Assembly: GCA_951406725.2 (NCBI GenBank)
Contig: OX597821.1
Span: 14,446,001-14,510,000, forward strand
DNA length: 64,000 nt
Source: Octopus vulgaris
Lineage: Eukaryota
Direction of reading: 5' to 3'
The notes under the pieces are model-generated. The model did no database searches. It was not told the DNA's origin and saw only the letters and a program-made list of their open reading frames with translations. This document shows, piece by piece, positions 13,232 to 31,061 of this stretch (position 1 is the stretch's first letter; each line of letters starts with the position of its first letter). The translations under genes and the position numbers were made by a program.

Positions 13232-14197
13232 AGAGAGAGTAAGTTAGAGAAGAAGTAAGAGAGAGAATGTGTGGGAGAGCGAGAGAGAGAAAGAGAGAAC
13301 TGGCTAATAATCAAAGTATTTATGAATTGATAGGCTGTTGCAGAGTACTCTGGCCACCAGAGATCAGTGCTTTTGATACACTAGACAAATTACTTTCTAT
13401 TGATTACTAAACTGCTAATCAATATTATAGATTTTGAGTCTTTTAAAATTCAATTCTAATTCTATCTTTTACTCTTACTATTCACATCAAACAATTTTGT
13501 TAATATATATCAGAAGTGTGAATAATATATATCATGATTGCAGATAATACATACCACATCTGTGAATAATATATAAAACAGCTGTGAATTTACTTCTGAT
13601 CTGATATTTCCAGTTTGATTTAATTAAATTACAGGTCTTAAACTACTTTTTTACAAAATAGTAGATAATTTGAATTCCAGATTAGCAGTTTTGTAAAGCA
13701 ACTCTATTGTATTATTCCTGATTGGTACCTCATTAACAGCTGCTAAAAGCTCTAATTTAAAAGAAAAACACACACACATATACTCTCTTTCTCTCTCTCT
13801 CTCTCTATGCAACTAATAACTTATTCAAAAAAAAAAAAACAAAAAAAAAACTCATAGCGATTTGCTTTCATATGTCTTTCCTACCTTCCTGTTTGTTAAA
13901 ATATTTTTTCCTTTCACTTTCTTTTTCCATAATCAAATAAACAGTATAATTATAAAAACCATAGTTGCTGATGAGATTCAATCAAATTGAAATGGTAGCT
14001 GTATATGAATAATAATAACTTTATAGTTGAAATGACTCCATTCCATCAAACTCAGGATTGCTTAACATAAAAAAAAATTCTCTGGCTGGACTACTCTTTC
14101 CCTTACAAAAGAAATAAGTGACCAATGAACCAACAATATATCATACATTCTAAAAGAGTAATTGTTATATATAGAAATACTGATCAATTTTAATTTT

Positions 14198-14519
14198 CAT
14201 TATATACATTTGACGGATATTTGTCCTCATCTTGTATGTTGTTAACACATTTCGGCTAATATATACCCTCCAGCCTTCATCAGGTGTCTTGGGCAAATTT
14301 CGAACCTGGGTTCTTATTCCTAAGGTATTTTTCATTGTTGTTGTTATTATCATTATTATTATTATTGTTATTATTATTCAAGTCACTACTTGGAATCAAG
14401 CTCAGAATCTTAGGGTTAGTAGCCTGTTCTCTTAACCATGACACCATATGCCCAAGGGCGTAGTGGTTAAGAGCACGGGCTACTAATCCCTAAATTCCGA
14501 GTTCGATTCCAGGCAGTGA

Positions 14520-14588
<69 letters not shown>

Positions 14589-14786
14589 CAACAACAACAA
14601 CATCATCAAAAATTACCTTAAGAATGAGAACTCAGTTTTGAAATTTCCTCAAGACACCTAATGAAGGCTGGAGGATATATCAACCAAAATGTTGTGTTAG
14701 CAACAAACAAGATGAGAACAAATATCTGTCAAATGTAAATAATGTAAATAATGTACATAATTCCTCATCTCTTAAATATAGAACTG
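14198..14786. mobile_element. Palindromic element with head-to-head tRNA-like Pol III heads, (AAT)n spacers and distal HHR motifs
   Basis: Arms 14198-~14445 and ~14457-14744 are reverse complements. A box GGCGTAGTGGTTAAG (14457-14471), B box GAGTTCGATTCC (14499-14510). HHR-like motifs at 14244-14288 (-) and 14653-14698 (+). Confidence 0.8.
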
Positions 14787-14992
14787 AATTTTCATTTAGT
14801 TTAAAATGACAAAAAAACTTTCCTTCATGAAATAATTTTGGTCAGTTAAATGAATGTTAATCAGACAGTTCTACTGCCTCTCAGATATTACCAATATGCT
14901 TAAAGGTAACCCAAAATATCTTTGTTCCATTATCACAGAAACTAAAATCTGAAGCCTGCACAGACCTTATGATCATAAACTTAATGAATATA

Positions 14993-15420
14993 GGCGCAGG
15001 AGTGGCTGTGTGGTAAGTAGCTTGTTTACCAACCACATGGTTCCGGGTTCAGTCCCACTGTGTGGCACCTTGGGCAAGAGTCTTCTACTATAGCCTCGGG
15101 CCGACCAAAGCCTTGTGAGTGGATTTGGCAGACGGAAACTGAAAGAAGCCCATTGTATATATGTATATATATATATGTGTGTGTGTGTTTGTTTGTGTGT
15201 CTGTGTTTGTCCCCCTAGCATTGCTTGACAACCGATGCTGGTGTGTTTATGTCCCCGTTACTTAGCGGTTCGGCAAAAGAGACTGATAGAATAAGTACTG
15301 GGCTTACAAAAGAATAAGTCTCGGGGTCGATTTGCTCGATTAAAGGCGGTGCTCCAGCATGGCCGCAGTCAAAAATGACTGAAACAAGTAAAAGAGTAAA
15401 AGAGAGTAAAGCGAAAGAGT
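14993..15420 (+). mobile_element. tRNA-derived SINE, family A
   Basis: Head GGCGCAGGAGTGGCTGTGTGGTAAG...GGTTCAGTCCC, internal (TA)/(TG) tract, tail (GTAAAAGA)n; many copies in the window. Confidence 0.9.
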
Positions 15421-15569
15421 ATGTAATTAAATGATTACAATGAATCACCAAGAAAAGAATCTGCCTTGCTATCCTCCAGAGCAAAGCCTTTTCCATTCTG
15501 TCTGCTGGTGCCATAAGAATTGTTGAACTATGACATAGTTGTGTCTACAGTAAATTGGTATGTGGATGC

Positions 15570-15983
15570 ACTCTTTACTCTTTTACTCTTTTACTTGTTT
15601 CAGTCATTTGACTGCGGCCATGCTGGAGCACCGCCTTTAGCCGAGCAACTCGACCCCGGGACTTATTCTTTGTAAGCCCAGTACTTATCCTATCGGTCAC
15701 TTTTGCCGAACCGCTAAGTGACGGGGGACATAAACACACCAGCATCGGTTGTCAAGCAATGCTAGGGGGACAAACACAGACACACAAACATACACACACA
15801 TACATATATATACATATATACGACAGGCTTCTTTCAGTTTCCGTCTACCAAATCTACTCACAAGGCCTTGGTCAGCCCGAGGCTATAGTAGAAGGCACTT
15901 GCCCAAGGTGCCACACAGTGGGACTGAACCCAGAACCATGTGGTTGGTAAGCAAGCTACTTACCACATAGCCACTCCTGCGCC
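15570..15983 (-). mobile_element. tRNA-derived SINE, family A (tail-to-tail with the 14993 copy)
   Basis: Reverse complement of the 14993-15420 copy. Confidence 0.9.
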
Positions 15984-16329
15984 TATATGCACTCATGCAT
16001 AAACAACAGTTATCATTACATCAACAATAAATGTACAACTGTTGTCTGTGTAAAGTAGTTTTAAACCAAAAAACGGGAAATTCTGGAGAAATGTTTAACT
16101 TAAGAACCACAAATGAAAGACCTCTAGACATGAATCAAATGTTTACATATTCTTTATAGAGTATACCAACATATTTGACTAAGTAAAAATGCCAAGTATA
16201 ATGTGTATTTTATAGCTGAAGCTCAGGAACATGAAATATAGACCTCAAAATAATAATAAGAATGTTCTGAAATTAAAGAGCAGTGGTAAGAACAGAAGGG
16301 AAAAACACTTCAGAAATTAGAACTAGGAA

Positions 16330-17162
16330 AGGAATTACGCAAAACTGGGAACTGAGGTCCTTCAGAGAAGTTGAAATCATGACAGTAGTATTAATATGAG
16401 GTATGAACATCAACAGCCTTAGTTAAGGAGACAATATATCCTTATTAACTTTCAATGGAGACCACCTACAAAGTCAGGTAACTACAGCAAATGGTAAAGA
16501 AATATCCATATGAAATGTGAAGTAAACAAAGTTGCCAAAAAGTAAACATCACTACTGCAGGAAAGTCAACTGAACAGGTATCAAAGGCAATATACTTGAG
16601 ATATATGCAATTAGAAAATAGAAAAAAATATGAACTAGAAATCAAAAAGCAGGATTGAGATGGCTGGAAAGTCATTTGAAATAATGTCAAACATAGTAAC
16701 ATCAAGAAACATTAATATCAAACATAGGAAGAGATTATTAAAAAGTTATGTATAGTCTACTCTAGTAAATGGAGCTGAAACATAGACATCAACAAAAGTA
16801 GTATAAAAATATCTTACAAGCTTTTGAGATGTGGACATTTAGAAGACTTGAAAATATCATGGACTGAAGACAAATCCAATAATAAGATAGCAAATTTAAG
16901 ACATTTTATTAGAGACCATCAAAAAGAGAAACCTAAAATATTTTGGACACTTAATTAAGTTGGTGGTGGTAGGGGGGATGGGTGGGGGTGGCAGATGACT
17001 GGGAAATGGAAGAAGAGAGAAAACCAAGAATTAAAGGAATGGATAACATAAAAAATTGAACTGATTTAAAATACAATGAATGCATAAGGACATTTAAGAA
17101 AGAGTGAGATGACAAGCCATGTTATTCAACCTGCTGTGAATAGACAATACCTAAATGATGAT
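16330..17162 (+). mobile_element. Degenerate RTE-like LINE 3' fragment
   Basis: Broken translation resembles the RTE RT C-terminus (..STL.NGAET.T.., AFEMWTFRRL.ISWTE) with many stops; boundaries approximate. Confidence 0.6.
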
Positions 17163-17829
17163 GGCAATTCAACTCTGAGGGAGAGAGAAAAAGAAAGGAA
17201 AAAGAAGGGAAAAAGTGAGAGATACAGAAAGGAGAATGAAGTGGAAGAAAAGTTAAGAAGCTTTTAATCAGTAACTGTGATATCATTGTTTCAAATTGTA
17301 TTGATATGTTAATTACAGATAAAAGTTATAGGCTGGGAAGCTGGCTAAGAAATGAGTAAGTGTAATGATGCTTGATTTTTAAGTGGACCTGCTTCATATG
17401 GTAATGGCTCTCGTGTGTTTTAATTTTATATCCCATCAATTATGCTGTCTTGTATCTTTCAACAAATGACTAAATACTGCCCTGATGTACAACAGTTACT
17501 GAAGGTGATAAAAGAATAAAAAGACTGTCAAACTAGTTGGATATTTAATGATTGGTTGGTTTACAGAACAGAAATAAAATTCCCTCATAGGAAAAATAAA
17601 ATAAACAGGATTTACATAATATAATTGTAATCCTTTGTTTCAATAGCTATATAAAATATTGTGAATTCAAATTACTATTCTTCTTCAAGTCAGATACCCA
17701 TAGACTTTAGCCACCAAAAACAATATATATTTGCAAGAATGAGAATGACAACAATAACAACGATATCTACTACACAATGGCTACCAACATCATCATCATC
17801 ATCATCACCATCATTAGTGGAATGACAAT

Positions 17830-18280
17830 ATCATCATCATCATCATTGCTTAACGTCTGCTTTCCAATCTGATCTGGCAGAGTTTCTACAGCTGGATGTC
17901 CTTCCTAATGCCAACCACTCCGAGAATGTAGTGGGTGCTTTTATGTGCCACTGGCACGAGGGCTAGTAAGGTGGTACTGGCAACGGCCATGCTGAAATGG
18001 TGTTTTTTATGTGCCACCTGCACATGAACCAGTCCAGCGGTACTGACAACGACCTTGCTCGACTGTTTTTTCACATGCTACTGGCACAAGTGCCAGTAAG
18101 GTGATGCTGGGAACGATCACGCTTGAATGGTGCTTTTTATGTGCCACCAGCACTGAAGCCAGTCAGCTGCTCTGGCAATGATCATGCTCAGATGGTGCTC
18201 TTAGTGCTCCACTAACACGGATGCCAGTCATCGAATTTGATTTCGATCTCGATTTCACTTGCCTCAACAGGTCTTCGTAA
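17830..18280 (-). mobile_element. Family C repeat with diverged ~61-bp internal units
   Basis: (CAT)n end, ctggatgtccttcctaatgccaaccactcc core and repeated ggtgctttttatgtgcca units. Confidence 0.8.
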
Positions 18281-18669
18281 GTGAAAAAGTAAAATTATAA
18301 CAGCAATTTCGTCAAGGTATTCCAACTCTGAATCTTAATATTCTAGATTTCAAGAATGACAAGAGAAACAAATTAAAGATATGGAGTAACAGTAAAGAAA
18401 AGTATATCCCTAATTTTGCCTTTCAATTTTCTGTATTTTTGAATAGATAACCCTTAAATTTAAATTCTGGTTAAATTTCTAGCCTCATCCACCACAAAAG
18501 TTACTACTAACAAAACCGTAACATTTCAAGTTCTAGTTTCTATTACTTTGTCCTTGATTGAATAAAATAGAATTGACCCAAAAATTTAGGCTTAAAAACA
18601 AAAAGGATCAAGAAAAATAAAAATTAAAGGTTAACTTTGCTTTCAAAGACTTCCAAACTATAGAATCCT

Positions 18670-18980
18670 GGCACTCCATCGGTTATGAAGATGAGAGTTC
18701 CAGTTGATTCAATCAACAGAACAGCCTGCTCATGAAATTAATGTGCTAGTGGTTGAGCACTCAACAGACATGCATACCCTTAATGTAGTTTTCAGGGAGA
18801 TTCAGTTTGATACAGAATGTGACAAGGCCGACCCTTTGGATTATAAATACAATTCATTTTTGCCAGATGAGTTGACTGGAGCCACATGAAATAAAGTGTC
18901 TCACTCAAGGACATACTACGCCACTGGGAATCGAACTCATGACCATACACTCATGAGCCTAACCACTAAGCCACATGCCT
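18670..18980 (-). mobile_element. Diverged tRNA-derived SINE related to family B
   Basis: Shares the family B 3' part (aacagaacagcctgctcatgaaattaa); B-box complement gggaatcgaactc. Confidence 0.7.
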
Positions 18981-20075
18981 AGACTAACATAGAATGGGGT
19001 AAATATGGATAATGGTAATATTGGAGGAGATTACAGTGTTAACAGCAATTGCTGTGATGTTAATGATAGTGATAAGATTTATATTTAAATATAGTCAATG
19101 TTTTTGGCAGTTATTCCAAATGAAACCCATGAAAAAACAAAATCTCTTTAAAATGCACTTTTAAAATGAAGTTTAAAATCTTTACACGCTGTCATTTTAT
19201 CTTTACAGTTGTTATTAATTATGTGTGATAATATCAATATAAAGTGTGACTGACATTGATGTAAGATAGTGGGATTTATTGCTCGTAAGCCAAGAACAAG
19301 AAAATAATTGCAGACATTGTTTTGTATCACTTTGCAAAGCATTTAATTATGTTCAGCTAATGCTACATGTCAAATTAAGAAATCATTATTTTCTTGATCT
19401 TCGTGGACTAATTAGAAACCAGCAGTGGTATTCACTCAGTCTCACCCATATTTATTAAGGCCTGAAATAAATACTCTTACATGATTTCACTATATTTTTG
19501 GATAAGTTGCTTTCAAGCGATGCAGGCAATGTTCAGTTGATCAGAGAATATTGATTCTCACAGAAATGTTGCATTCAATCCTGCTCAAAGTTGAACTTAT
19601 TAAAAAAGACACACAAAAAATTAAATAGATAAACAAATTTGATATAATCACAGACAAGAAATTCATTTTTCAGTCTTGTGTTTCAGGTTCAGTCCCACTG
19701 TGCCACACCAGGGGCTAATGCCTTCTACTATGGTCTCAAGTCAACCAATAACTAGTGAATGAATTTGATTGATGGAAACTATGTAGAAATCCATCATTAA
19801 AACCAATACTTTTAGTTCTTGGTACTTTCTTGAATTTAGTCAACTGATCTCTATTTATCTCCATTGAAATTTGCTTCTAATACAGTTGCATTTTATCTTT
19901 GGTTTTATTTACTTCCTTGTTTTGAGTTTTATGTCACCTTTGAGGTACACCTGTGTCATTATCTTGCTACAGGTGTTTTATATCACAACCATTTATCTTA
20001 TGTTCTGTAATAATTAGAGTTACTCCCATCAAACAAAATTTCAATTTCATGATATTAAATCACTACAACACCAAA

Positions 20076-20470
20076 TCTTTATATATAAAAGTGAGGTTGT
20101 GTGCTGTCTGTCTCCTACGATTTAGATTCCGAACTACTCCCACATTTTGCGGTGCAGTTTAACCAAAACCGGGTATCTTATAGTCATGATTCATATCGAG
20201 CCCTTCTGGGTATTAGCGCATGTCTATGATGAGTCTACAATTTAAAAATAAATTTATCATCAATTTTTCCCATTTTTAATGCATTTTTGGCATATATAAT
20301 GGAAGTAACTCTCTAAAAATTTATTGTTAAATCTCAGAACGTAAAAAGCTACAGTAACACCCCTCTTTGTGGTTAGCCATATTGAGATGGCTATTATACT
20401 TTACATCTCTAAAAATGCTTATATAGTTATTTCCCTTACAAACCCGAGCAACGCCGGGCGATACTGCTAG
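20076..20470 (+). mobile_element. Non-autonomous Helitron
   Basis: A|TC...cccgagcaacgccggg...CTAG|T. Confidence 0.9.
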
Positions 20471-21062
20471 TTAGTCATATTTTAGTAAGTATTCTAGCTT
20501 TCATTCTCCAAGTTTTTATTAATTTTAATTATTAACTATAAAAATGACTATTTAGTTGCATTACCTTGATAATATTTCTTTTTTCTTATATTTAATTATT
20601 TTTAACCTTCAAATTCAATAGAAATACAATTAAACATTATGAGAACAAATTCTGAATTATGAAAACAAATTCTCTTTTTGTTTGGAACCTATATAAAAAT
20701 AACACACATACTAATGGAGAAAGAATTTTTAATCAGAGTAGAAACTATGATATTAAACCCAGATCTACTTCAGTGAAGACCCATATGATTATTGTCTTTG
20801 CATTTAACAGCTAAGCAGGCAAAAATGATGATCTAGATGAATGATTCCAAACTTTAATTGTGGAGGAGAAAACTAGGTTCATAGCTGCTGAAAACCCTCT
20901 CAGCTCTCTAAGAATAGAATAGTGTAAGATGTTTCCCTATATAAGACATTTTACTACAGAATATTAAAAGAAGAAGAGCCAACTGATATTTCCTTACCAA
21001 AGATGACAACCATTTTCATGAGATACAATAAAGACAGGAATGTTGTTTAAGATGTATAAGTT

Positions 21063-21203
21063 TCATCATCATCATCGTTTAACGTCCGCTTTCCATGCTA
21101 GCATGGGTTGGACGGTTCAACTGGGGTCTGGGGAGCCCGAAGGCTGCACCAGGCCAGTCAGATCTGGCAGTGTTTCTACAGCTGGATGCCCTTCCTAACG
21201 CCA
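21063..21203 (-). mobile_element. Family C repeat, 5'-truncated
   Basis: catcatcatcgtttaacgtccgctttccatgctagcatggg... as in the other copies. Confidence 0.8.
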
Positions 21204-23678
21204 TTAGACATAAAAAAGTGTATACATTATAAAGCTGTTCCTTCCTGCACAAAAATGATGGGATGATAGTGGTGTTCCTAGTGATTTTATACATAACTAT
21301 TTTGATAGCATCTACAAATAATAATAATAATAATCTTTGACAAAGTTAAAAAATCTAAATGATAAAAAATATCCAAATGTGGATTTTGTTAATAAGATTA
21401 TAATATTTCAGGCCATCAATTGAATCTTCAAAGATGTATACATTTTCAATGTTCAGATCTATACTACATCCTAACCTGTCTGATTCCTGACTCTCACAAG
21501 ACATCTTACTGGGTGTGTGCATAGTACTGAACTGATCCCTGCATCAGTGGCTGAGTAGATAAGGACAGTGTTTAGGAACAGAGGTTCCTAGTTCAAAGCT
21601 AGTCAGATACTATGTACACATCCAAGAGGAATAAGACAACCAGTGATGAATGGAGATAAAAACTAATTGAAAAATAGTGCAGATAGAAATACTAAAAATT
21701 CCTTACATCTCCAAAGATAAGGTCAATAGCTTGAAGAATTATTTAGCTAATTTACAAAGTTTTATAGATCTATTTATGTTGGCTAGGTTATCAATTTTAG
21801 GAGTGGAGATATTGATTAAATTCTAAAGATGTGATGCAAAGGCATAAGGAATGAATGTCTAGGATTACCCAGTCCTAACATAGACCTTGTTTTAGGCATT
21901 CTCTGCTGCTTATACTCACTCTTCCCTAGTTATAATTCCAGCATTATATAAACTCAATACTTGCTGTAACAATTTTATTGAATTTCTGAGAAGGTGAAAT
22001 ATACACTACTCTGTCAATAGTAAAACAGCAGAAGGTTGAGAGTTTGCTTGACTTGTAGTAATATTGTTGTTTGGCAGTTGTCCTTCTGAAGGAAGTGAAA
22101 TAATCTGCAGGAACAAACTACAATAATAAAGTCAAAATCAAAATCACACTTGGCATGAGATGTTTATTAGTTTTCCTAAATATTTGATGAATTATCTTTT
22201 GTGATCTAGAACTGCTCAGCTAAAGCTGATTCGCTAGTATGCCCAGCAACAATTCATAGAGATTCTTACTTGTGATATGGTTTATACTATGAAAGATATT
22301 CACCTATAAAAATAGTTTCTCTAGAAACACAAGAGTTTCTAATTCATGCTATGACGTGAGGGAAAATAACAAAAGGATAAAAGGGAAAATATTCATTATA
22401 TATCTATACATATTCTACTTGCGAAGTCATTTATAAGAAAATGTTTAACTAGACAGATATCTAAGAACAATTAATTCACATCTGATGAACAAGCTAATAC
22501 AACCTGGCTAACTGAATATTTTAAGTCTGACCAAATACAAAAATTGGCAGAGGTCAAAATATGTTAGCAGTCACAAATTAATTTTCTACAGTCATCAAAA
22601 TGACATAAAGAAACATTGATAACATTATGGTTACAGAAGCCTCTTTGAATGTAAAAGAGTCAGGAAAAAAGTCTATATCATATTGACATGAGACTAATTG
22701 ACTTCGAAAATAGAGCCAAAAACACCAATAATCATACTAAACATGTTTACTGAGCATCTCACTCAATACCAAAGAGGGCATGAATTTTCCATGAAATTTT
22801 AAAGTCTGGATTTTAATTCTGTTTTTATTAACAACATCCTCTGGAAAACAAACGAAAAAAAAAAGCACAATACAAACTTGGAGTAAATTTCACATCTGGA
22901 AATATATTCAGCAGTAGATTCATACATATTACATATTGGGTAAATTTTGATGATGATGATGAGGAAGGGGAGGAGGGGTGGATTAGGGATAAGGATATAT
23001 TATACTATAATGAGAAAAGAAGAAAGGATAATATGCAAGAAGAGTTTCTAAATCTCAATTCCAGGTGTCTCAGCCCTCCTTTCCACAGAAAGAAACCTGG
23101 CAATCTGTCTCCTACCTGTTTTCCAGTTAACTTCTCATACTCAACTTACATTCAATAAATTCTTTCAGTTATTACCTGAATAAAGGACTAGTTGACATAT
23201 ATGATGAAAATGAAAGGTAAATAGAAATTTATGACATACAGGACAACTGAGTGTTTCTACATAACAGTTAGCTGTAAACTATAAATCTAGTCTGTAGCTG
23301 GAACAAAGAATCATCCAGCAGGAAGAGGACAGTGGTGGAAGGTTAGAGTAGCAAGGTAGAGCCAAGCTAAAAATCTTGAAAATAAAGAAATAAATGGCAA
23401 GTAAATAACAATATCAGGTGACTAGAAAGGAAGTTAGACTTCAGTATACATAGCAAGGATAAAAACTGAAAGTTACAAGTTTGCCAATCTTCTATGATGA
23501 GAAAATTAGAGATGAGGTATTCCTGGTTGCAAAGTAGTGTGTTATGTCAGTGCAAATCAAGAAGTTGGGGAAAAGTGATAATGGAACATTAGCTGGGTAC
23601 TTGACCTCATTGACACTAAGAAGAAAAGAAAGCGGTATAGAAATGTTATTTTGAGAAATTGCTGAATAAAGAGAAAGC

Positions 23679-23723
<45 letters not shown>

Positions 23724-23936
23724 TGAGAATGTTCTAAGAAGACCCAAGAGAAAAACCAGCTAATGAAGTTAACAAAACTGCACAATGTTACAAAACGTGA
23801 TTAAGGTTATGAAACCAGTAAAAAGCAGTGGGACCATCAGCGATAGTTGCTTACATGCTGAGAATATCTGGTGAAGTCTGCCATGTGCTAGTCAGCCCTC
23901 ATCAAGAAAACATAATCAAAGGTATTCCAGTAGAGA

Positions 23937-24462
23937 TCATCATCATCATCATTTAGCGTCCGTTTTCCATGCTAGCGTGGGTTGGACGGTTCAACTGGGG
24001 TCTGTGAAGCCAGAAGGCTGCATCAAGCCCAGTCTGATCCGGCAGTGTTTCTACGGCTGGATGCCCTTCCTAACGCCAACCACTCCGCGAGTGTAGTGGG
24101 TGCTTTTTACGTGCCACCCGCACAGGAGCCAGACAGAGCTGGCAAACGGCCAAGAACAGATGGTGCTTTTAAGTGCCACCGGCATGGAGGTGAGGCGAGG
24201 CTGGCAACGGACACGAATGGATGGTGCTTTTACGTGCCACCGGCACGGGGGCCAGGCAAGGCTGGCAACGGACAAGAACGGATGGTGCTTTTACGTGCAA
24301 CCGGCATGGGGGCCAGGCGAGGCTGGCAACGGACACGAACAGATGGTGCTTTTATGTGCCACCGGCACGGGGGCCAGGCGAGGCTGGCAACGGACACGAA
24401 CGGATGGTGCTTTTACGTGCCACCGGCACGGAGGCCAGTCGGGGCAGTGCTGGCAACGATCA
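23937..24462 (-). mobile_element. Family C repeat with ~6 tandem 61-bp GC-rich units
   Basis: gatggtgctttt recurs at 24159, 24220, 24281, 24342 and 24403 (61-bp period). Confidence 0.9.
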
Positions 24463-24539
24463 TAATATAATTTTATTATGTGAAAAGAATCCAGAGCCAT
24501 ATTATCAAATGCATTATTTTTTTGAGAGACAAAGCAGCT

Positions 24540-24960
24540 AATTTTAGTAGGTCGAGGGAAAACATAGCAAATCCCTTGTTAACCAGGGAAATGTCATAAA
24601 CAATTAGAGTAGTAGAATCATCGTCTACCACAAGGCCTACAAGGCCAAGACTCTAGCAAGAAACGTCAAACACTAATGGATGAAATGATGAAAGTACGGG
24701 AAAAAGTTATCACATAACTAATTAGAAAGACAAATAGCTTAGATGAGATACAGTTTGTGCTTGTGTTAGGGCACTATGCTTCAACCAAATATGATGACTA
24801 CAGCAAAGGTTCTTAGCTTAGAATAAACCACTATACCTAACATTCATCAAACTATAGAAGCCCTATGACAGGATCCAATGTTCTGTAATCTGGTGGTTAC
24901 AAAGAAAAGTAGATGTAAGAGTTATAGAAACCATGATATGGCTATAAGTCATAATTAGTA
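24540..24960 (+). mobile_element. Degenerate LINE reverse-transcriptase fragment (RTE-like)
   Basis: Broken translation ..LDEIQF.., NKPLYLTFIKL.KPYDRI.CSVIWW resembles the RT motif LYLAFIDLEKAYDR. Confidence 0.6.
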
Positions 24961-26400
24961 ATGGTTGTTTTTATGTTTGTGTTTTTAACAACAAAATAAA
25001 AGTGTTTATTATTAAACCAAGTCATTATATAAGAATATAAAGCAACATAATAATCCCCTCTTGGCATTCAATCAAGTCCCCTAGCATCATGTTTAAAGAT
25101 ATCTGTAGAATTTATTTTATTATGGAAACAGCTCTCTGTATCTGTTTTTCTCACCCCTGTACACACACACACACACACATACATGAGTGTGTGTGTGTGT
25201 GATGGATTTGCTCCATCTTTCACTGTTGTCCAAGGATGAGAAAGACGAAACTTGGAGTAATGGCATAGGATAAAACTCTACAACATATATTGAGGGCATT
25301 TTTTTAATGCACCATGTCCATGCCATTTTTTCTCTCTCTCTCACACACTCTGAGGCATGTATATATGTGTGTGTTTGTGTGTGTGTGTGTGTTTATATAT
25401 ATATATATATAGATTGTAGTCAGATCAAAGCTCTGATAATCAGAGGTCGGTTACTGGTAACCAAACATTGGAAACTATTGCAACCTTCGGTAAATTTATG
25501 TTGTCAGAGATTAGATTTCAGTGGGATTAAAGATAGCACCTGTCTAGAGAGCAGATGACCTCAAGAGAATGTGCAAGCACAATACTCATAAACACACAAA
25601 CACACACAATATTTATTTTATGAATTTAAAACATTATGAAGTATAACTTGTAGATTATAAGTACTCAATTGAACTATGCTGTTGCTACCTGTGTCTCAAC
25701 TAAGAATTTTACACATTTCATCTAGGGGTATTTTTTCCAGGCCTGAAATTCTTTAAATACTTAAATTTATCTTAAATATTCAGTTTTAACAATATTCAAA
25801 TTTTCAATTAACTGATCTCTTCAGAATTAACTCCCTTGTTAGCTGATTTTAGAATTTTAGTGTTCCCATATGGAAATTCTTCCAATTGCATGTATAATTT
25901 CACTTAATGTTATATTCTACTTAATTTATACTTAATATACAATTTCCTCCACTCAGGTATTTTCTTTTGCCATATTGATAATATCTATTTCATACTATCT
26001 GGTTGTATCTGGTAAATATGCTTACCATACAACCATTTATTGAGCAAGCCTCTCATTATAGAAGGTGCTTCATAACATATATAGAATTAATAAATTATCA
26101 AGGGAAATCACTCTTAAAACATTTCTTTGTTTTTACAAGGGAGATGACTTCATGCTTCTGCTGAAATTTGAATTTTAATTATACATTTATCTTGCTTATA
26201 ATTCAAATATGCCTGTTGACACACCTGTGTTCAAAATTCAAGCCTGAATATTGCTTCTCAGATCAGTAGAAATAGCTGTTTCCCTCTTCTAGTCAGGAAC
26301 ATCGCAGATATAGCTGATATTGTAAAGTTTTTATGTATGCAAAAACTGTATCTACTGCTATATCTGTGTTATAGTTTAGAATCTTCAAGAACACACCTTT

Positions 26401-26765
26401 CATCATCATCATCATCATCATTTAGCGTCCACTTTCCATGCTAGCATGGGTTGAACAGTTCAACTGGGGTCTGTGAAGCCAGAAGGCTGCATCAGGCCCA
26501 GTCTGATCTGGCAGTGTTTCTAAGGCTGGATGCCCTTCCTAACACCAACCACTCCATGAGTGAAGTGGGTGCTTTTTACGTGCCACCCGCACAGGTGCCA
26601 GATGGAGCTGGCAAACGGCCACGGACGGATGGTGCTTTTTACGTGCGACCGGCACGGGGGCCAGGCCAGGCTGGCAACGGCCATGAACGGATGGTGCTCT
26701 TTACGTGCCACCGGCACGGAGGCCAGTCGGGGCGGCGCTGGCAATAGCCACGATTGGATGGTTCG
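26401..26765 (-). mobile_element. Family C repeat with ~3 internal units
   Basis: Homologous to 23937-24462. Confidence 0.85.
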
Positions 26766-27456
26766 CTTACTACTTTATATAATGATTTTGTTTTCTCCTC
26801 TGTTTTTGATGTATCATATGTACACTGATGATAAAATGTTGTTCTTTTAGCTTTTATATGGGAGTGAATAGAAATGCTATATACGCTGTGTTTTAAAGGT
26901 GTTTCTAGTCAGGTTGATATATAACTATCTGTACCATCTGGTACAACTTAGGTTAAGGGAGCTGATTAATATATTTCTACAGTCTCATATTGGTTGAATA
27001 GGTTGCGTAGTATTGCAGGAATTAAGTAGTGGTTGAAAATTTGTTGGTGTATGCTACCCTAACAGCATTAACTAGCTTTTACTGAACTTCCATTAAATAT
27101 TTTGTGGTAAGTACATCAGGTAGGGGAGTTTATACTCATCAGTGTCAGAATATTTCCAAAATTTCTGAAACAACTGAAATAGTCACTGATGAAATGAGTA
27201 AAAGTGAATCACAAGTCTGAGCTGTGACACAGAAAATATTAGCTGAGCACATTAAATGATGTGTGTGTGTCTGCATATGTGTATGTGGACATAAGTGTAT
27301 TTGCATGTATATGTCTGGATATGTGTGCATATTTGCATATATTATGCAAATAGCATGTGCATTGCTTATGTTATATATTTACACATGCACACACACACAT
27401 ATATGAGCACATGAAAAATCTACATAGGTACATATGTGCATGTGTATGTACATACA

Positions 27457-27498
<42 letters not shown>

Positions 27499-27534
27499 TA
27501 TATATATGGTTGATGGATCATAAACACACACATC

Positions 27535-27940
27535 GACCGGTCTGAGATTCGAACTCACAATCCCTCGACCATGAGTCCACTGCTTTAACCACTTGGCCAT
27601 GTGCTTCCATGTGCATATATTGTGCATATATATATATATATATATCCACATGGCCTAGTCGTTAGAGCAGTGGAGTCATGGTCGAGGGATCGTGCCTTCG
27701 AATCTCAGACCGGGCGATGTGTGTGTTTATGAGCAAAACACTTAAGCTCCACGCGGCTCCGGCAGAAGGTAATGGCGAACTTCTGCTGACTCTTTTGCCA
27801 CAACTTTCTCTCAATTTTTCCTCCGGCATCTTGCAGTTCACCTGCAATGGACCGGCGTCCCATCTACGTGGGGAACCTATACACCAAGAAAACCGAGAAA
27901 CTGGCCCTAATGAGCCAGGCAGGGCTCGAGAAGGAACAAA
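27535..27940. mobile_element. Head-to-head tRNA-derived SINE heads (27535-27605 minus; 27649-27940 plus, family-B related)
   Basis: Minus head with B-box complement gattcgaactc; plus head tggcctagtcgttagag...ccttcgaatctc. Confidence 0.7.
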
Positions 27941-28073
27941 CATATATATGCATACAGGTATGTTGATCCAAACAAGAAAAATAGAACTCAAAATATGAGA
28001 ATATGTATATTTTTATTAATGTTTAGAAGTAGTAACAGAGTCACTCAAGGTCTGAGAGTTTTATACACTGGCA

Positions 28074-28097
28074 TATATATATATATATATATATATA

Positions 28098-28152
<55 letters not shown>

Positions 28153-28326
28153 TATATTATATATACAGCTTATATATATTATATTATATCAATATATCAA
28201 TCATTATATTATATATATATATATTGTATATATATATATATATTATATTATATATATATTGTATATATATATATATTATATATATTGTATATATATATTA
28301 TATTATATATATTGTATATATATATA

Positions 28327-28370
<44 letters not shown>

Positions 28371-28390
28371 ATATTATATTATATATATAT
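28074..28390. repeat. Degenerate (TA)n field
   Basis: Direct reading. Confidence 0.95.
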
Positions 28391-29044
28391 TCATGTTTAT
28401 GTGTGTGTATATGTATACTGACACTCATATATAACACATAAAAATATATAATCATTTGATTATGTAATTCATATTCTATAGCAAATAATTTTCATTTGTT
28501 AATGGAATACACTTAGTATATGAAGCAAAACAAAATATGAGATAATTCTTATAAACTATTGAGCTACACTATCTTATGCATAATGCAGTAACAAAGAAAG
28601 TTTATAAGTTACTGTAAATTACTTTATCAAAATGCATTGCTAAATCTTCAGAGATATGTAATCTTTATAAATAGCATTACTGCATTATTGGAAGAAGTTA
28701 TCATCATTATGGCTGATATCTCCATCATGGTAATTTCAGATCAATAATTCTATAAAATTATGCATAAGTTTATACATCTCTGAGGATTTGAGAATGCATT
28801 TTCATTATGTATTTTACTTTATGCAATAATTATCTTTTGTTAATGAAATATATACAAGATGGTGCAACTGAATATTCTGTAAACTATCTCTTATGTTTTG
28901 TTTTCTACGTGACATACTCAGCTACAGTTTCATACTAAATGATATGAGAACAATAACAAGAATTGGAATACACATGATGTTCTGAATACTGGTTATTTGA
29001 TGAGGAATTTTAATTCGAAATGTCACATGCATGTGTGTGTATGT

Positions 29045-29682
29045 ACATATGTGCAAGCCAAGTGAGATCATAACCCATGGCCTATGCCAGTGGGTGTAAC
29101 CAGCCACTCATGAGTACCCCTCATTCATTGGGCAATAAACTTTGCTTGCAAAGACCTGTTGAGGCAAGTGAAATCAAAATCAAAATCGCTGACGTAGCTG
29201 ATGACAGTATCGCCTGATTGGCACTTGTGCCAGTGGAACATTAAAAATACCATCCAAGCGTGATCGTTGCCAGGGCTGCTGATTGGCTCCCATGCCGGTG
29301 GCACATAAAACGCACCATTCGAGCATGATCATTGCCAGCATTACCTTACTGGCACATGTGCTGGTGGCATGTGAAAAACAACATTTGAGTGTGGTCGTTG
29401 CCAGTGCCGCCAGACTGGCTCCTGTGCAGGTAGCACGTAAAAAACACCTTTTGAGCATGGTCGTTGCCAGAACTGTCTGACTGGCCCTCGTGTTGGTGGC
29501 ATGTAAAAGCAGCCACTACACTCTTGGAGTGGTTGGCATTAGGAAGGGCATCCAAGCTGTAGAAACTCTGCCAGATCAGATTGGAGCCTGGTGCAGCCTT
29601 CTTGCTCGCCAGTCCTCAGTCTAACCATCCAACCCATGCCAGCATGGAAAGCAGACGTTAAACGACGATGATGATGATGATG
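29045..29682 (+). mobile_element. Longest family C copy, diverged internal units, (ATG)n tail
   Basis: Reverse complement of the 17830 and 23937 type; ends gacgttaaacgacgatgatgatg. Confidence 0.8.
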
Positions 29683-29867
29683 ATATATATACATGTACAT
29701 ATACACACAGTATATATATATATGCATGTGTTATAAATATATATATATATTTGTGTGTGTGTGTATCAGATCTGATGAATATGATATGAAATTGAATAAA
29801 TTTTTAACACTGTACTTCTCAATCTTGAATTTTGTCTAGACACATATACACATACATACACACACAC

Positions 29868-29898
<31 letters not shown>

Positions 29899-31061
29899 CA
29901 TGTATATATAGACACACACACACGTATATATATATATATATATATGTGCATGTGTGTGTATATATATATATATATGTATGTGTATATGTGTCTATACAAA
30001 AGTCAAGAGTGGGAAGTATAATGATGAAAGATTTATTAAATTTCATATACTCCTCTCATCTAATTTCTGTACGTTAACTACGTGATTTTTATAACAATAG
30101 AGACCCTTCACAAGAAATTTTGCCAAAACAGCATGAATTCTTTACACATTCTTCTTTTTCACATTATAAAAGATTCTAAATTACAGGCCATACAATTAGC
30201 ACATTTACTTTCACTTTCATACTTCATATATTTTGTGTGTGTATTAGTAGATGTATACTTATGAATAGGCATATGTATGTAGACCATCATTTACATTATG
30301 TATGTATGTGTGTAGGTATGTATATGTGTATGTGTGTATATATATATATATATATATGCATGCGTGTGTGTGAGTTCAAATGATGCTTGTTGCTTACCTT
30401 ACATATCGTATATATTTTTTTCATATAATTTTATGTTGATAACATTTTGATGAGTAAAGTCACCTGTCACTGGAATTTTGTACGTTTGTTTCAATATAGT
30501 GTGATTAGTAACTAATTGTTAATTATGTTGTGATTTTTTGCTTAAGTGTATATATAATATATATGTAATAATCAAATTTATTAATGTTATTTGATAATTT
30601 ATTAAAATGCATTTAATATATTTACCCTGTGTGAACCGAGTTTGGTGATTGGTGATTTACAATGTGCAAATTTTTGTAATAGTAAAGAACATGTTATTCA
30701 GAAATATGTAATATATTGAAAGCAAGCATATAACTAACACACAATAAAAAAGCATTTACAAATGGGTTGGATAAAACAAGCAGCAATATAAAAAACACTT
30801 GGTGGATATTATTAAAATGGGGCTTAATTGCATTACAATCTTGTATGTGTGTGGTCTATTTGAAAGAAGGATGACCTAAGTGTCTTAGGGGCCAAAAATT
30901 GCTAAAGTGGTGCTAATCTTAATTCATGCAAATATCAAGCTGTCAAGTCAGAAAAGAAATTGTCAAACTAGAGTGAGAGATGCTTTAAGATGTGTGAAGA
31001 ACAAGAAAGGAATTAATGTACTTATTACTTGGAAAAGAAAATGTGCATTGTAATGAACTAA

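Follow-up and report, generated by a model that had tools for sequence, protein, structure and literature searches.

A dead head-to-head insertion of a Penelope/Poseidon terminal repeat in Octopus vulgaris, with a tRNA-derived head that may have served as an internal Pol III promoter

Introduction

PLEs of the Penelope/Poseidon clade, such as PAc of the green anole (PMC11167929), Pen2a of Adineta (PMC3846280) and Penelope of D. virilis (PMC2377424), are described in the available sections of these reports as carrying an ORF with a reverse transcriptase (RT) plus, at its C-terminus, a GIY-YIG endonuclease, a terminal repeat (pLTR) that holds the first codons and a hammerhead, an inverted 5' copy, a 30–40 nt tail on one arm only, target-site duplications of 8–10 bp and two RT start sites ~110–150 nt into the ORF, features that are shared by the octopus family described here. 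The family differs in its promoter: the pLTR promoters described in those sections are Pol II-like (TATA/Inr or DPE), and no tRNA-derived head with A and B boxes is reported there. The minimal type I hammerheads of metazoan PLEs share with those of the octopus family, according to the accessible text of PMC4209133, a short helix I, a bulged base preceding helix II and a palindromic AACGTT that replaces helix III; they occur as thousands of solo copies and, in Schistosoma, as opposite-strand pairs 100–700 bp apart. Unlike the solo copies in that text, those of the octopus lead back to a tRNA head as their defined starting point.

Small-RNA-derived Pol III promoters within a terminal repeat are likewise found in TRIMp3 elements (Cassandra, Helenus and Ajax), which the available sections of PMC10886601 present as short, non-coding LTR elements whose autonomous partners are held to need Pol II, whereas the octopus element is a PLE that codes for protein and has the head in its own repeat. 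Sm-alpha and non-LTR retrozymes share with our family a type I hammerhead in a short repeat, but in the accessible descriptions (PMC7761336, PMC7229834) they are tandem, with canonical hammerheads and circular RNAs, whereas the octopus family is dispersed, inverted and contiguous with an ORF.

tRNA-derived SINEs resemble the family in having a head with intact boxes and decayed stems, a high copy number and a fixed 5' end, and differ from it in that the family has neither a LINE-derived tail nor a separate lineage. The octopus repeats OK, OR1 and OR2 are tRNA-derived SINEs, and the short form of the family may have been catalogued earlier as a SINE. Pol III boxes have reportedly been found in the Schistosoma Sm-alpha repeats as well. 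The prevailing view is that autonomous retrotransposons need Pol II (or Pol I read-through) and that Pol III heads occur only on non-coding passengers (SINEs and TRIMp3). No Penelope element whose pLTR is tRNA-derived came up in our literature search, which extended neither to subscription papers nor to Repbase and Dfam; the family may already be present in these two databases. Here we analyse a pair of inverted repeats in a 64-kb stretch of O. vulgaris DNA (henceforth referred to as the window).

Results

The arm pair is a single insertion

The locus consists of two inverted arms, 14201–14459 (−) and 14457–14786 (+), with a mutual identity of ~84%. Since a 9-bp target-site duplication (AATTTTCAT), missed by the first-pass annotation, flanks the pair, the two arms represent a single insertion. 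Its features are as follows.

14192–14200 (+): left copy of the target-site duplication, AATTTTCAT, 9 bp
14201–14459 (−): left arm, a pLTR copy that terminates at the short (tail-less) end and extends ~14 nt upstream of the A box
14244–14288 (−): left minimal type I hammerhead; its helix III palindrome has lost 3 nt and it is probably inactive
14335–14378 (−): left (AAT/AAC)n tract, separating the head from the start of the ORF
14379–14445 (−): left tRNA-derived head, with a damaged A box (14436–14445) and B box (14392–14403)
14446–14459: inversion junction, where the left-arm leader was probably joined to the right arm via a short GGC microhomology
14457–14523 (+): right tRNA-derived head, with A box (14457–14466) and B box (14499–14510); 94% identity to the family majority
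14524–14607 (+): right (AAT)n(AAC)n tract
14624–14786 (+): start of the Penelope ORF (~55 codons), with 14624 as the first in-frame ATG; a stop interrupts the ORF in this copy
14653–14698 (+): right minimal type I hammerhead, whose core is altered to CTAATGA and AAAAT
14710–14770 (+): predicted 9-bp stem whose loop contains the site of the short end (AATGTAAAT repeats); RT probably initiates in this region, from the family-majority fold and the end positions
14750–14786 (+): optional Penelope 'tail', 35–40 nt, on one arm only
14787–14795 (+): right copy of the target-site duplication

The coordinates bear out, on both arms, the order that the first-pass annotation had proposed, namely a head with A and B boxes, then an (AAT/AAC)n tract, then a hammerhead motif. 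The damage that it had read in the left hammerhead (3 nt absent, 14244–14288) and in the right one (the CTAATGA and AAAAT changes, 14653–14698) is present, and the right arm does extend ~40 nt beyond the paired region. The hammerhead 'tail' turned out to be protein-coding sequence, namely the first ~55 codons of a Penelope ORF; this ORF start (14624–14786) is 40% identical over 43 residues to an intact relative, P0123 (residues 18–59). No further family copies were found within the 64-kb window. Rfam and ARAGORN called neither a tRNA nor a hammerhead at the locus and detected neither the head nor the hammerhead of the pLTR family, and single-copy folds of the window's damaged motifs were not better than those of shuffles.

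Head and hammerhead travel together in a large family

A pattern of the intact hammerhead core had 3,934 exact matches in the genome and the reversed pattern had none; the motif is not a product of chance. Head and hammerhead form one travelling unit, as suggested earlier, and their chance nesting was rejected. All 100 hammerhead matches listed belong to the window's pLTR family. The decay-corrected family size is ~15,000–30,000 arms, a rough figure as the correction drew on older-biased loci, and family sequence, including the ORF, is also present in the contig sets of three other organisms. Scored with a tRNA profile built from 10 of the genome's tRNAs, the head reached 11.1 bits in the window and 18.2 bits in the family majority, against 1.5 and 2.3 bits for the best of 500 shuffles; its best match is tRNA-Arg, a weak assignment among the six isotypes sampled. 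The family-majority head has intact A and B boxes and broken acceptor, anticodon and T stems.

Helices I and II of the hammerhead fold in the family-majority model; in a dimer fold of two hammerheads, an intermolecular helix III was not the minimum-energy structure, which speaks neither in favour of dimer cleavage nor against it. Related elements retain the hammerhead core with different helix II sequences. The core decays at the neutral rate (21/465 versus 209/4,379 sites) after insertion, and pLTR copies are therefore inert. The internal (AAT)n tract of the element is a target for at least three further mobile families (L116, L124 and L298, with RTE-type 3' ends; L006, L022 and L029; L003, L294 and L309), whose insertion masks the head in many copies. 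Approximately 1,300 further minimal hammerheads lie in head-less pLTR fragments (L197–L226; control 55), and a family with a TTGAAGA core was also seen (L169–L194).

The arm is the terminal repeat of an autonomous element

The autonomous partner of the family was recovered with a Poseidon-like fragment as the query. A Pfam search for GIY-YIG and two motif searches gave only Neptune-type and other families, whose ends differ; other minimal hammerheads were discarded as a clue to the partner because they belong to head-less families; and a search for the body without the microsatellite (30 loci) returned mostly inversion junctions or later insertions and none led by an ORF. The tRNA head lies 37 nt after the stop of an RT/GIY-YIG ORF at 13 of 19 family endonuclease loci (among 30 loci), and it also follows the ORF stop in 15 of 20 larger loci. 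Along the unit, the ORF stop is followed after 37 nt by the tRNA head, (AAT)n and the start of the ORF with its hammerhead, and then by the short end, the tail and the rest of the ORF; a nearly full-length copy, L469, reads head, tract, hammerhead, tail, ORF, stop, head. The pLTR, found both before and after the ORF in L469 and others, consists of the 3' UTR and the first ORF codons. Hammerhead and tail of the window arms match this pLTR, in agreement with the Penelope-type terminus put forward in the first-pass annotation. Its candidate Penelope-dependent SINE survives in part: insertion by Penelope enzymes stands, and a separate SINE lineage does not, as the autonomous element's terminal repeat makes up the entire arm and its head. 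The locus is a dead back-to-back insertion of a Penelope terminal repeat and not a separate SINE.

The pLTR body translates into the N-terminus of the intact relatives P0123, P0129 and P0269 (P0123 residues 18–141 versus L442: 47% identity, E=2e-32). The RT domain matched RVT_1 on L446 (E=2.8e-10) and an endonuclease motif is present at the ORF end, giving a single ORF with RT and C-terminal GIY-YIG (CCHH-type); the Pfam GIY-YIG model had no match on two decayed pieces. Relatives of the RT range from 72% down to 44% identity, the latter to an Anolis carolinensis protein; the nearest, P0121–P0129, are 53–72% identical. In a tree from a quick search (27 rows, SH-aLRT 100) the RT clusters with P0211 of Anolis and separately from Neptune-like elements. 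A Neptune-type CxxC zinc-finger linker between RT and endonuclease is absent in P0121, P0123 and P0211 and present in L095. All family copies seen are broken, the longest open piece having 301 residues. Judged by these sequences, the element is an old PLE of the Penelope/Poseidon clade. Young Neptune-type PLEs with intact 781-aa ORFs and an extra upstream ORF were also found (L091–L097 and L269–L272); they have variant hammerhead-like ends (TTGATAAG core) and are inserted in (TA)n.

Pairs contain one long and one short arm

Of the 100 hammerhead matches listed, the first 94, which all lie on C1, were used to sample arm pairs; four overlapping loci were dropped, leaving 86 loci with 131 arms. 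Among the 39 head-to-head pairs, 36 had a long and a short arm, three had two short arms and none had two long arms, and four Neptune-type loci of the same genome obey the same rule. Target duplications of at least 8 bp were present in 22 of the 39 pairs as opposed to 6 of 195 swapped-flank controls. An earlier mixed set gave long and short arms in 46/50 and duplications in 33/50 (1/50 in the control). The duplications of family insertions are 8–13 bp long, with one long and one short arm inside. Head sequence was present on both arms in just 9 of the 39 pairs, and the axis of the palindrome is therefore not tied to the head, contrary to the expectation that copies are consistently centred on it.

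An inverted 5'-truncated copy, a 30–40 nt tail and a short duplication make up the Penelope pattern given in the accessible parts of PMC8557442 and PMC3846280. The family displays each of these hallmarks, including the tail on one arm, and the window palindrome is an ordinary Penelope 5' inversion. The pLTR repeats have two fixed internal ends and their microsatellite is internal, so they have no LINE-type 3' end (poly-A or simple repeat). The available sections of a study on the anole element PAc (PMC11167929) report that in vitro it nicks both strands of AT-rich DNA and that its RT starts at two internal sites, the spacing of which equals the tail, hammerhead cleavage being unnecessary. The one-long-one-short rule provides genomic support for the two internal RT start sites known in vitro.

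Insertion in the octopus family could have proceeded as follows. The RNA would start at the pile-up of 5' ends just before the A box (see below), and the element's own GIY-YIG nuclease would nick both target strands ~10 bp apart. Each nick would prime one cDNA, with the RT using two internal start sites, the short end and the tail end; the loop of the predicted 9-bp stem contains the short end, and the long end follows closely after this stem. If the start sites in the first pLTR were used, both cDNAs would run off the 5' end of the RNA after ~300 nt, and the two short cDNAs would then be joined head to head by microhomology to give a 'twin', a type of junction of which examples were seen.

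Copies begin just before the A box

We compared the 5' ends of 40 complete heads from the hammerhead-picked set. Of these, 32 begin 0–15 nt before the A box (mode −8) and eight continue into the ORF (four of the eight were assigned by eye, having small deletions), whereas the stop rate inside the head predicts ~4 starts there (binomial P ~1e-24). A head 19-mer has 4,735 exact matches in the genome, whereas the 20-mer at −32 to −13 has 947. In a set of 38 loci with the 5' part of the ORF, plus L469, seven ORF-leading copies have a whole head; three of them start at −5 to −10 and four run upstream into a preceding copy. RNase P cutting was disfavoured as the sole cause of the 5' ends, which reach −14/−15, the acceptor stem being broken. 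In a PLE hammerhead family that is head-less, the 5' boundary is fixed as well: among 21 anchored copies, 16 lie within 14 nt (30 loci were sampled, nine of which had no anchor or were used as the reference). The pile-up therefore points to where PLEs in general start and not to the polymerase; in the pLTR family, this start is at the tRNA head. The start of the tail (body position 131–143) is a second preferred 5' boundary, at which 9 of the 38 ORF-leading copies begin (L584, L589, L594, L595, L602, L604, L607, L611 and L613).

Terminator-like runs and transcripts

The majority sense strand (2,875 nt, with low depth in the first 600 nt) contains no TTTT run versus 31 AAAA runs. In its coding part (2,244 nt) 2.8 TTTT runs are expected by synonymous shuffling and none is found (P=0.03, for one family). 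Other PLE ORFs of the genome, not all of them independent families, have 1–9 TTTT runs in 15 of 15 cases. Across 38 related ORFs there is no depletion overall (120 runs versus 120 expected), and 11 of the 38, mostly short pieces, have none. The absence of TTTT is, to a modest degree, compatible with Pol III read-through. In three RNA-seq runs both directions were equal, 70–81% of reads ran into unrelated flanks and there were no discrete ends; no splice joint for a pLTR intron of the kind found in D. virilis was present among the RNA joints listed. Among metagenome relatives (31–54% identity), a weak tRNA-like stretch was found at the head position in 1 of 28 (L474), with a score of 4.7 bits versus a shuffle maximum of 4.3 and with TTTT runs downstream. 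This tandem, intact Poseidon-like metagenome element (L474:2820–2960; JGI1357J11328_10009043) has an AAT run and the weak tRNA-like stretch between stop codon and hammerhead and is possibly a second case.

Discussion

The family is ordinary in its insertion and unusual in its promoter. The reading towards which we lean, on balance, is that the window holds one dead head-to-head pLTR insertion of the Penelope/Poseidon clade, the tRNA head of which likely served as an internal Pol III promoter. Use of Pol III by the element is plausible from its sequence, and the odds that Pol III makes the short RNAs of the family are about even. The further step, in which the whole 2.8-kb RNA of the autonomous element would be made by Pol III from the tRNA-derived pLTR promoter, with an ORF purged of TTTT and cap-less translation, and promoter-first fragments would act as SINEs that come ready-made, so that the family would be a living link from autonomous elements to SINEs, is rather doubtful. 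In the available text of PMC10886601, Pol III is regarded as making only short RNAs and described as poorly processive, and ribozyme-driven cap-independent translation exists according to the accessible part of PMC13725137. The predicted site of hammerhead cutting is ~70 nt downstream of the ATG, and cleavage cannot therefore simply release a translatable 5' end.

It is possible, though we think it unlikely, that the same Penelope pLTR merely carries the head as a passenger caught in the 3' UTR, which would have been an old SINE or a pseudogene of a tRNA, together with its AAT tail; Pol II would then transcribe from a TATA-less internal promoter and a palindrome before the head (GCCCACGGGC) would help to fix the 5' ends. 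The D. virilis Penelope pLTR has an internal, TATA-less, LINE-like promoter in the available sections of PMC2377424, the head-less PLE family of the octopus genome has its fixed 5' boundary too, and a capped mRNA would account for the translation of an ORF of ~810 codons; moreover, the absence of TTTT reaches only P=0.03. However, starts at 0 to −15 from the A box are where Pol III would begin, many uninverted copies with unique flanks start there too, and the A and B boxes have been kept while the acceptor, anticodon and T stems are broken. The head-less family, furthermore, has T-runs directly after its start, whereas the tRNA-headed family has none.

A separate tRNA-headed SINE lineage that used Penelope enzymes in trans, with short copies as its own source genes, appears improbable to us. 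Short copies outnumber ORF-linked ones ~5:1, every long-arm copy has the promoter boxes and the RT start region and could be a template, and non-autonomous PLE derivatives are known from the accessible parts of two reports, namely Chlamys MRC1 (PMC8557442) and retrozymes (bioRxiv 10.64898/2026.07.22.740005). Yet 49 short arms (starting at the head and partly chosen by head likeness) and 19 ORF-linked arms showed no fixed diagnostic difference, dimorphic sites are common to both, and non-CpG divergence is equal (4.4% in short and 4.5% in ORF-linked arms, P=0.28); the short copies therefore derive from the same sources as the long ones, although there may be minor short-only subfamilies given the small sample. 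The head, moreover, belongs to the autonomous element, and full-length RNA alone suffices to yield short copies. The Pol III retrozyme named in the first-pass annotation, in which the ribozyme would excise a monomer to be circularised and copied by rolling circle, is very improbable indeed: a type I hammerhead is present, and animal retrozymes are proposed to derive from PLE pLTRs in the available text of bioRxiv 10.64898/2026.07.22.740005, but copies are dispersed and inverted instead of tandem, with a head-to-tail second body at 1 of 26 loci (L130), and their ends lie 45–95 nt beyond the cut site with none clustered there. In addition, the twin arms are on opposite strands, giving one hammerhead per RNA, and the core decays at the neutral rate.

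If the head did act as we favour, a Penelope element with its own tRNA promoter would break the division between autonomous elements served by Pol II and passengers served by Pol III; it would also raise the question of cap-independent translation for a long Pol III RNA and show a route to a SINE with no separate fusion step. Even when read cautiously, the results explain many thousand repeats of the octopus 'SINE plus hammerhead' type as terminal repeats of Penelope.

Other features of the window

A different, very abundant tRNA-headed SINE is present in the window as two tail-to-tail copies at 14985–15411 (+) and 15573–15991 (−), with 92% identity, and as approximately ten more pieces. Arrays of 61–66 nt units of another dispersed repeat family are located at 24099–24445, 26568–26726 and 29212–29508. 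At 528–641 (−), the Rfam model of the potassium channel RNA editing signal scored 65.6 bits, corresponding to an exon of a Shaker-type channel, and inverted repeats upstream of this exon could form double-stranded RNA in the pre-mRNA.
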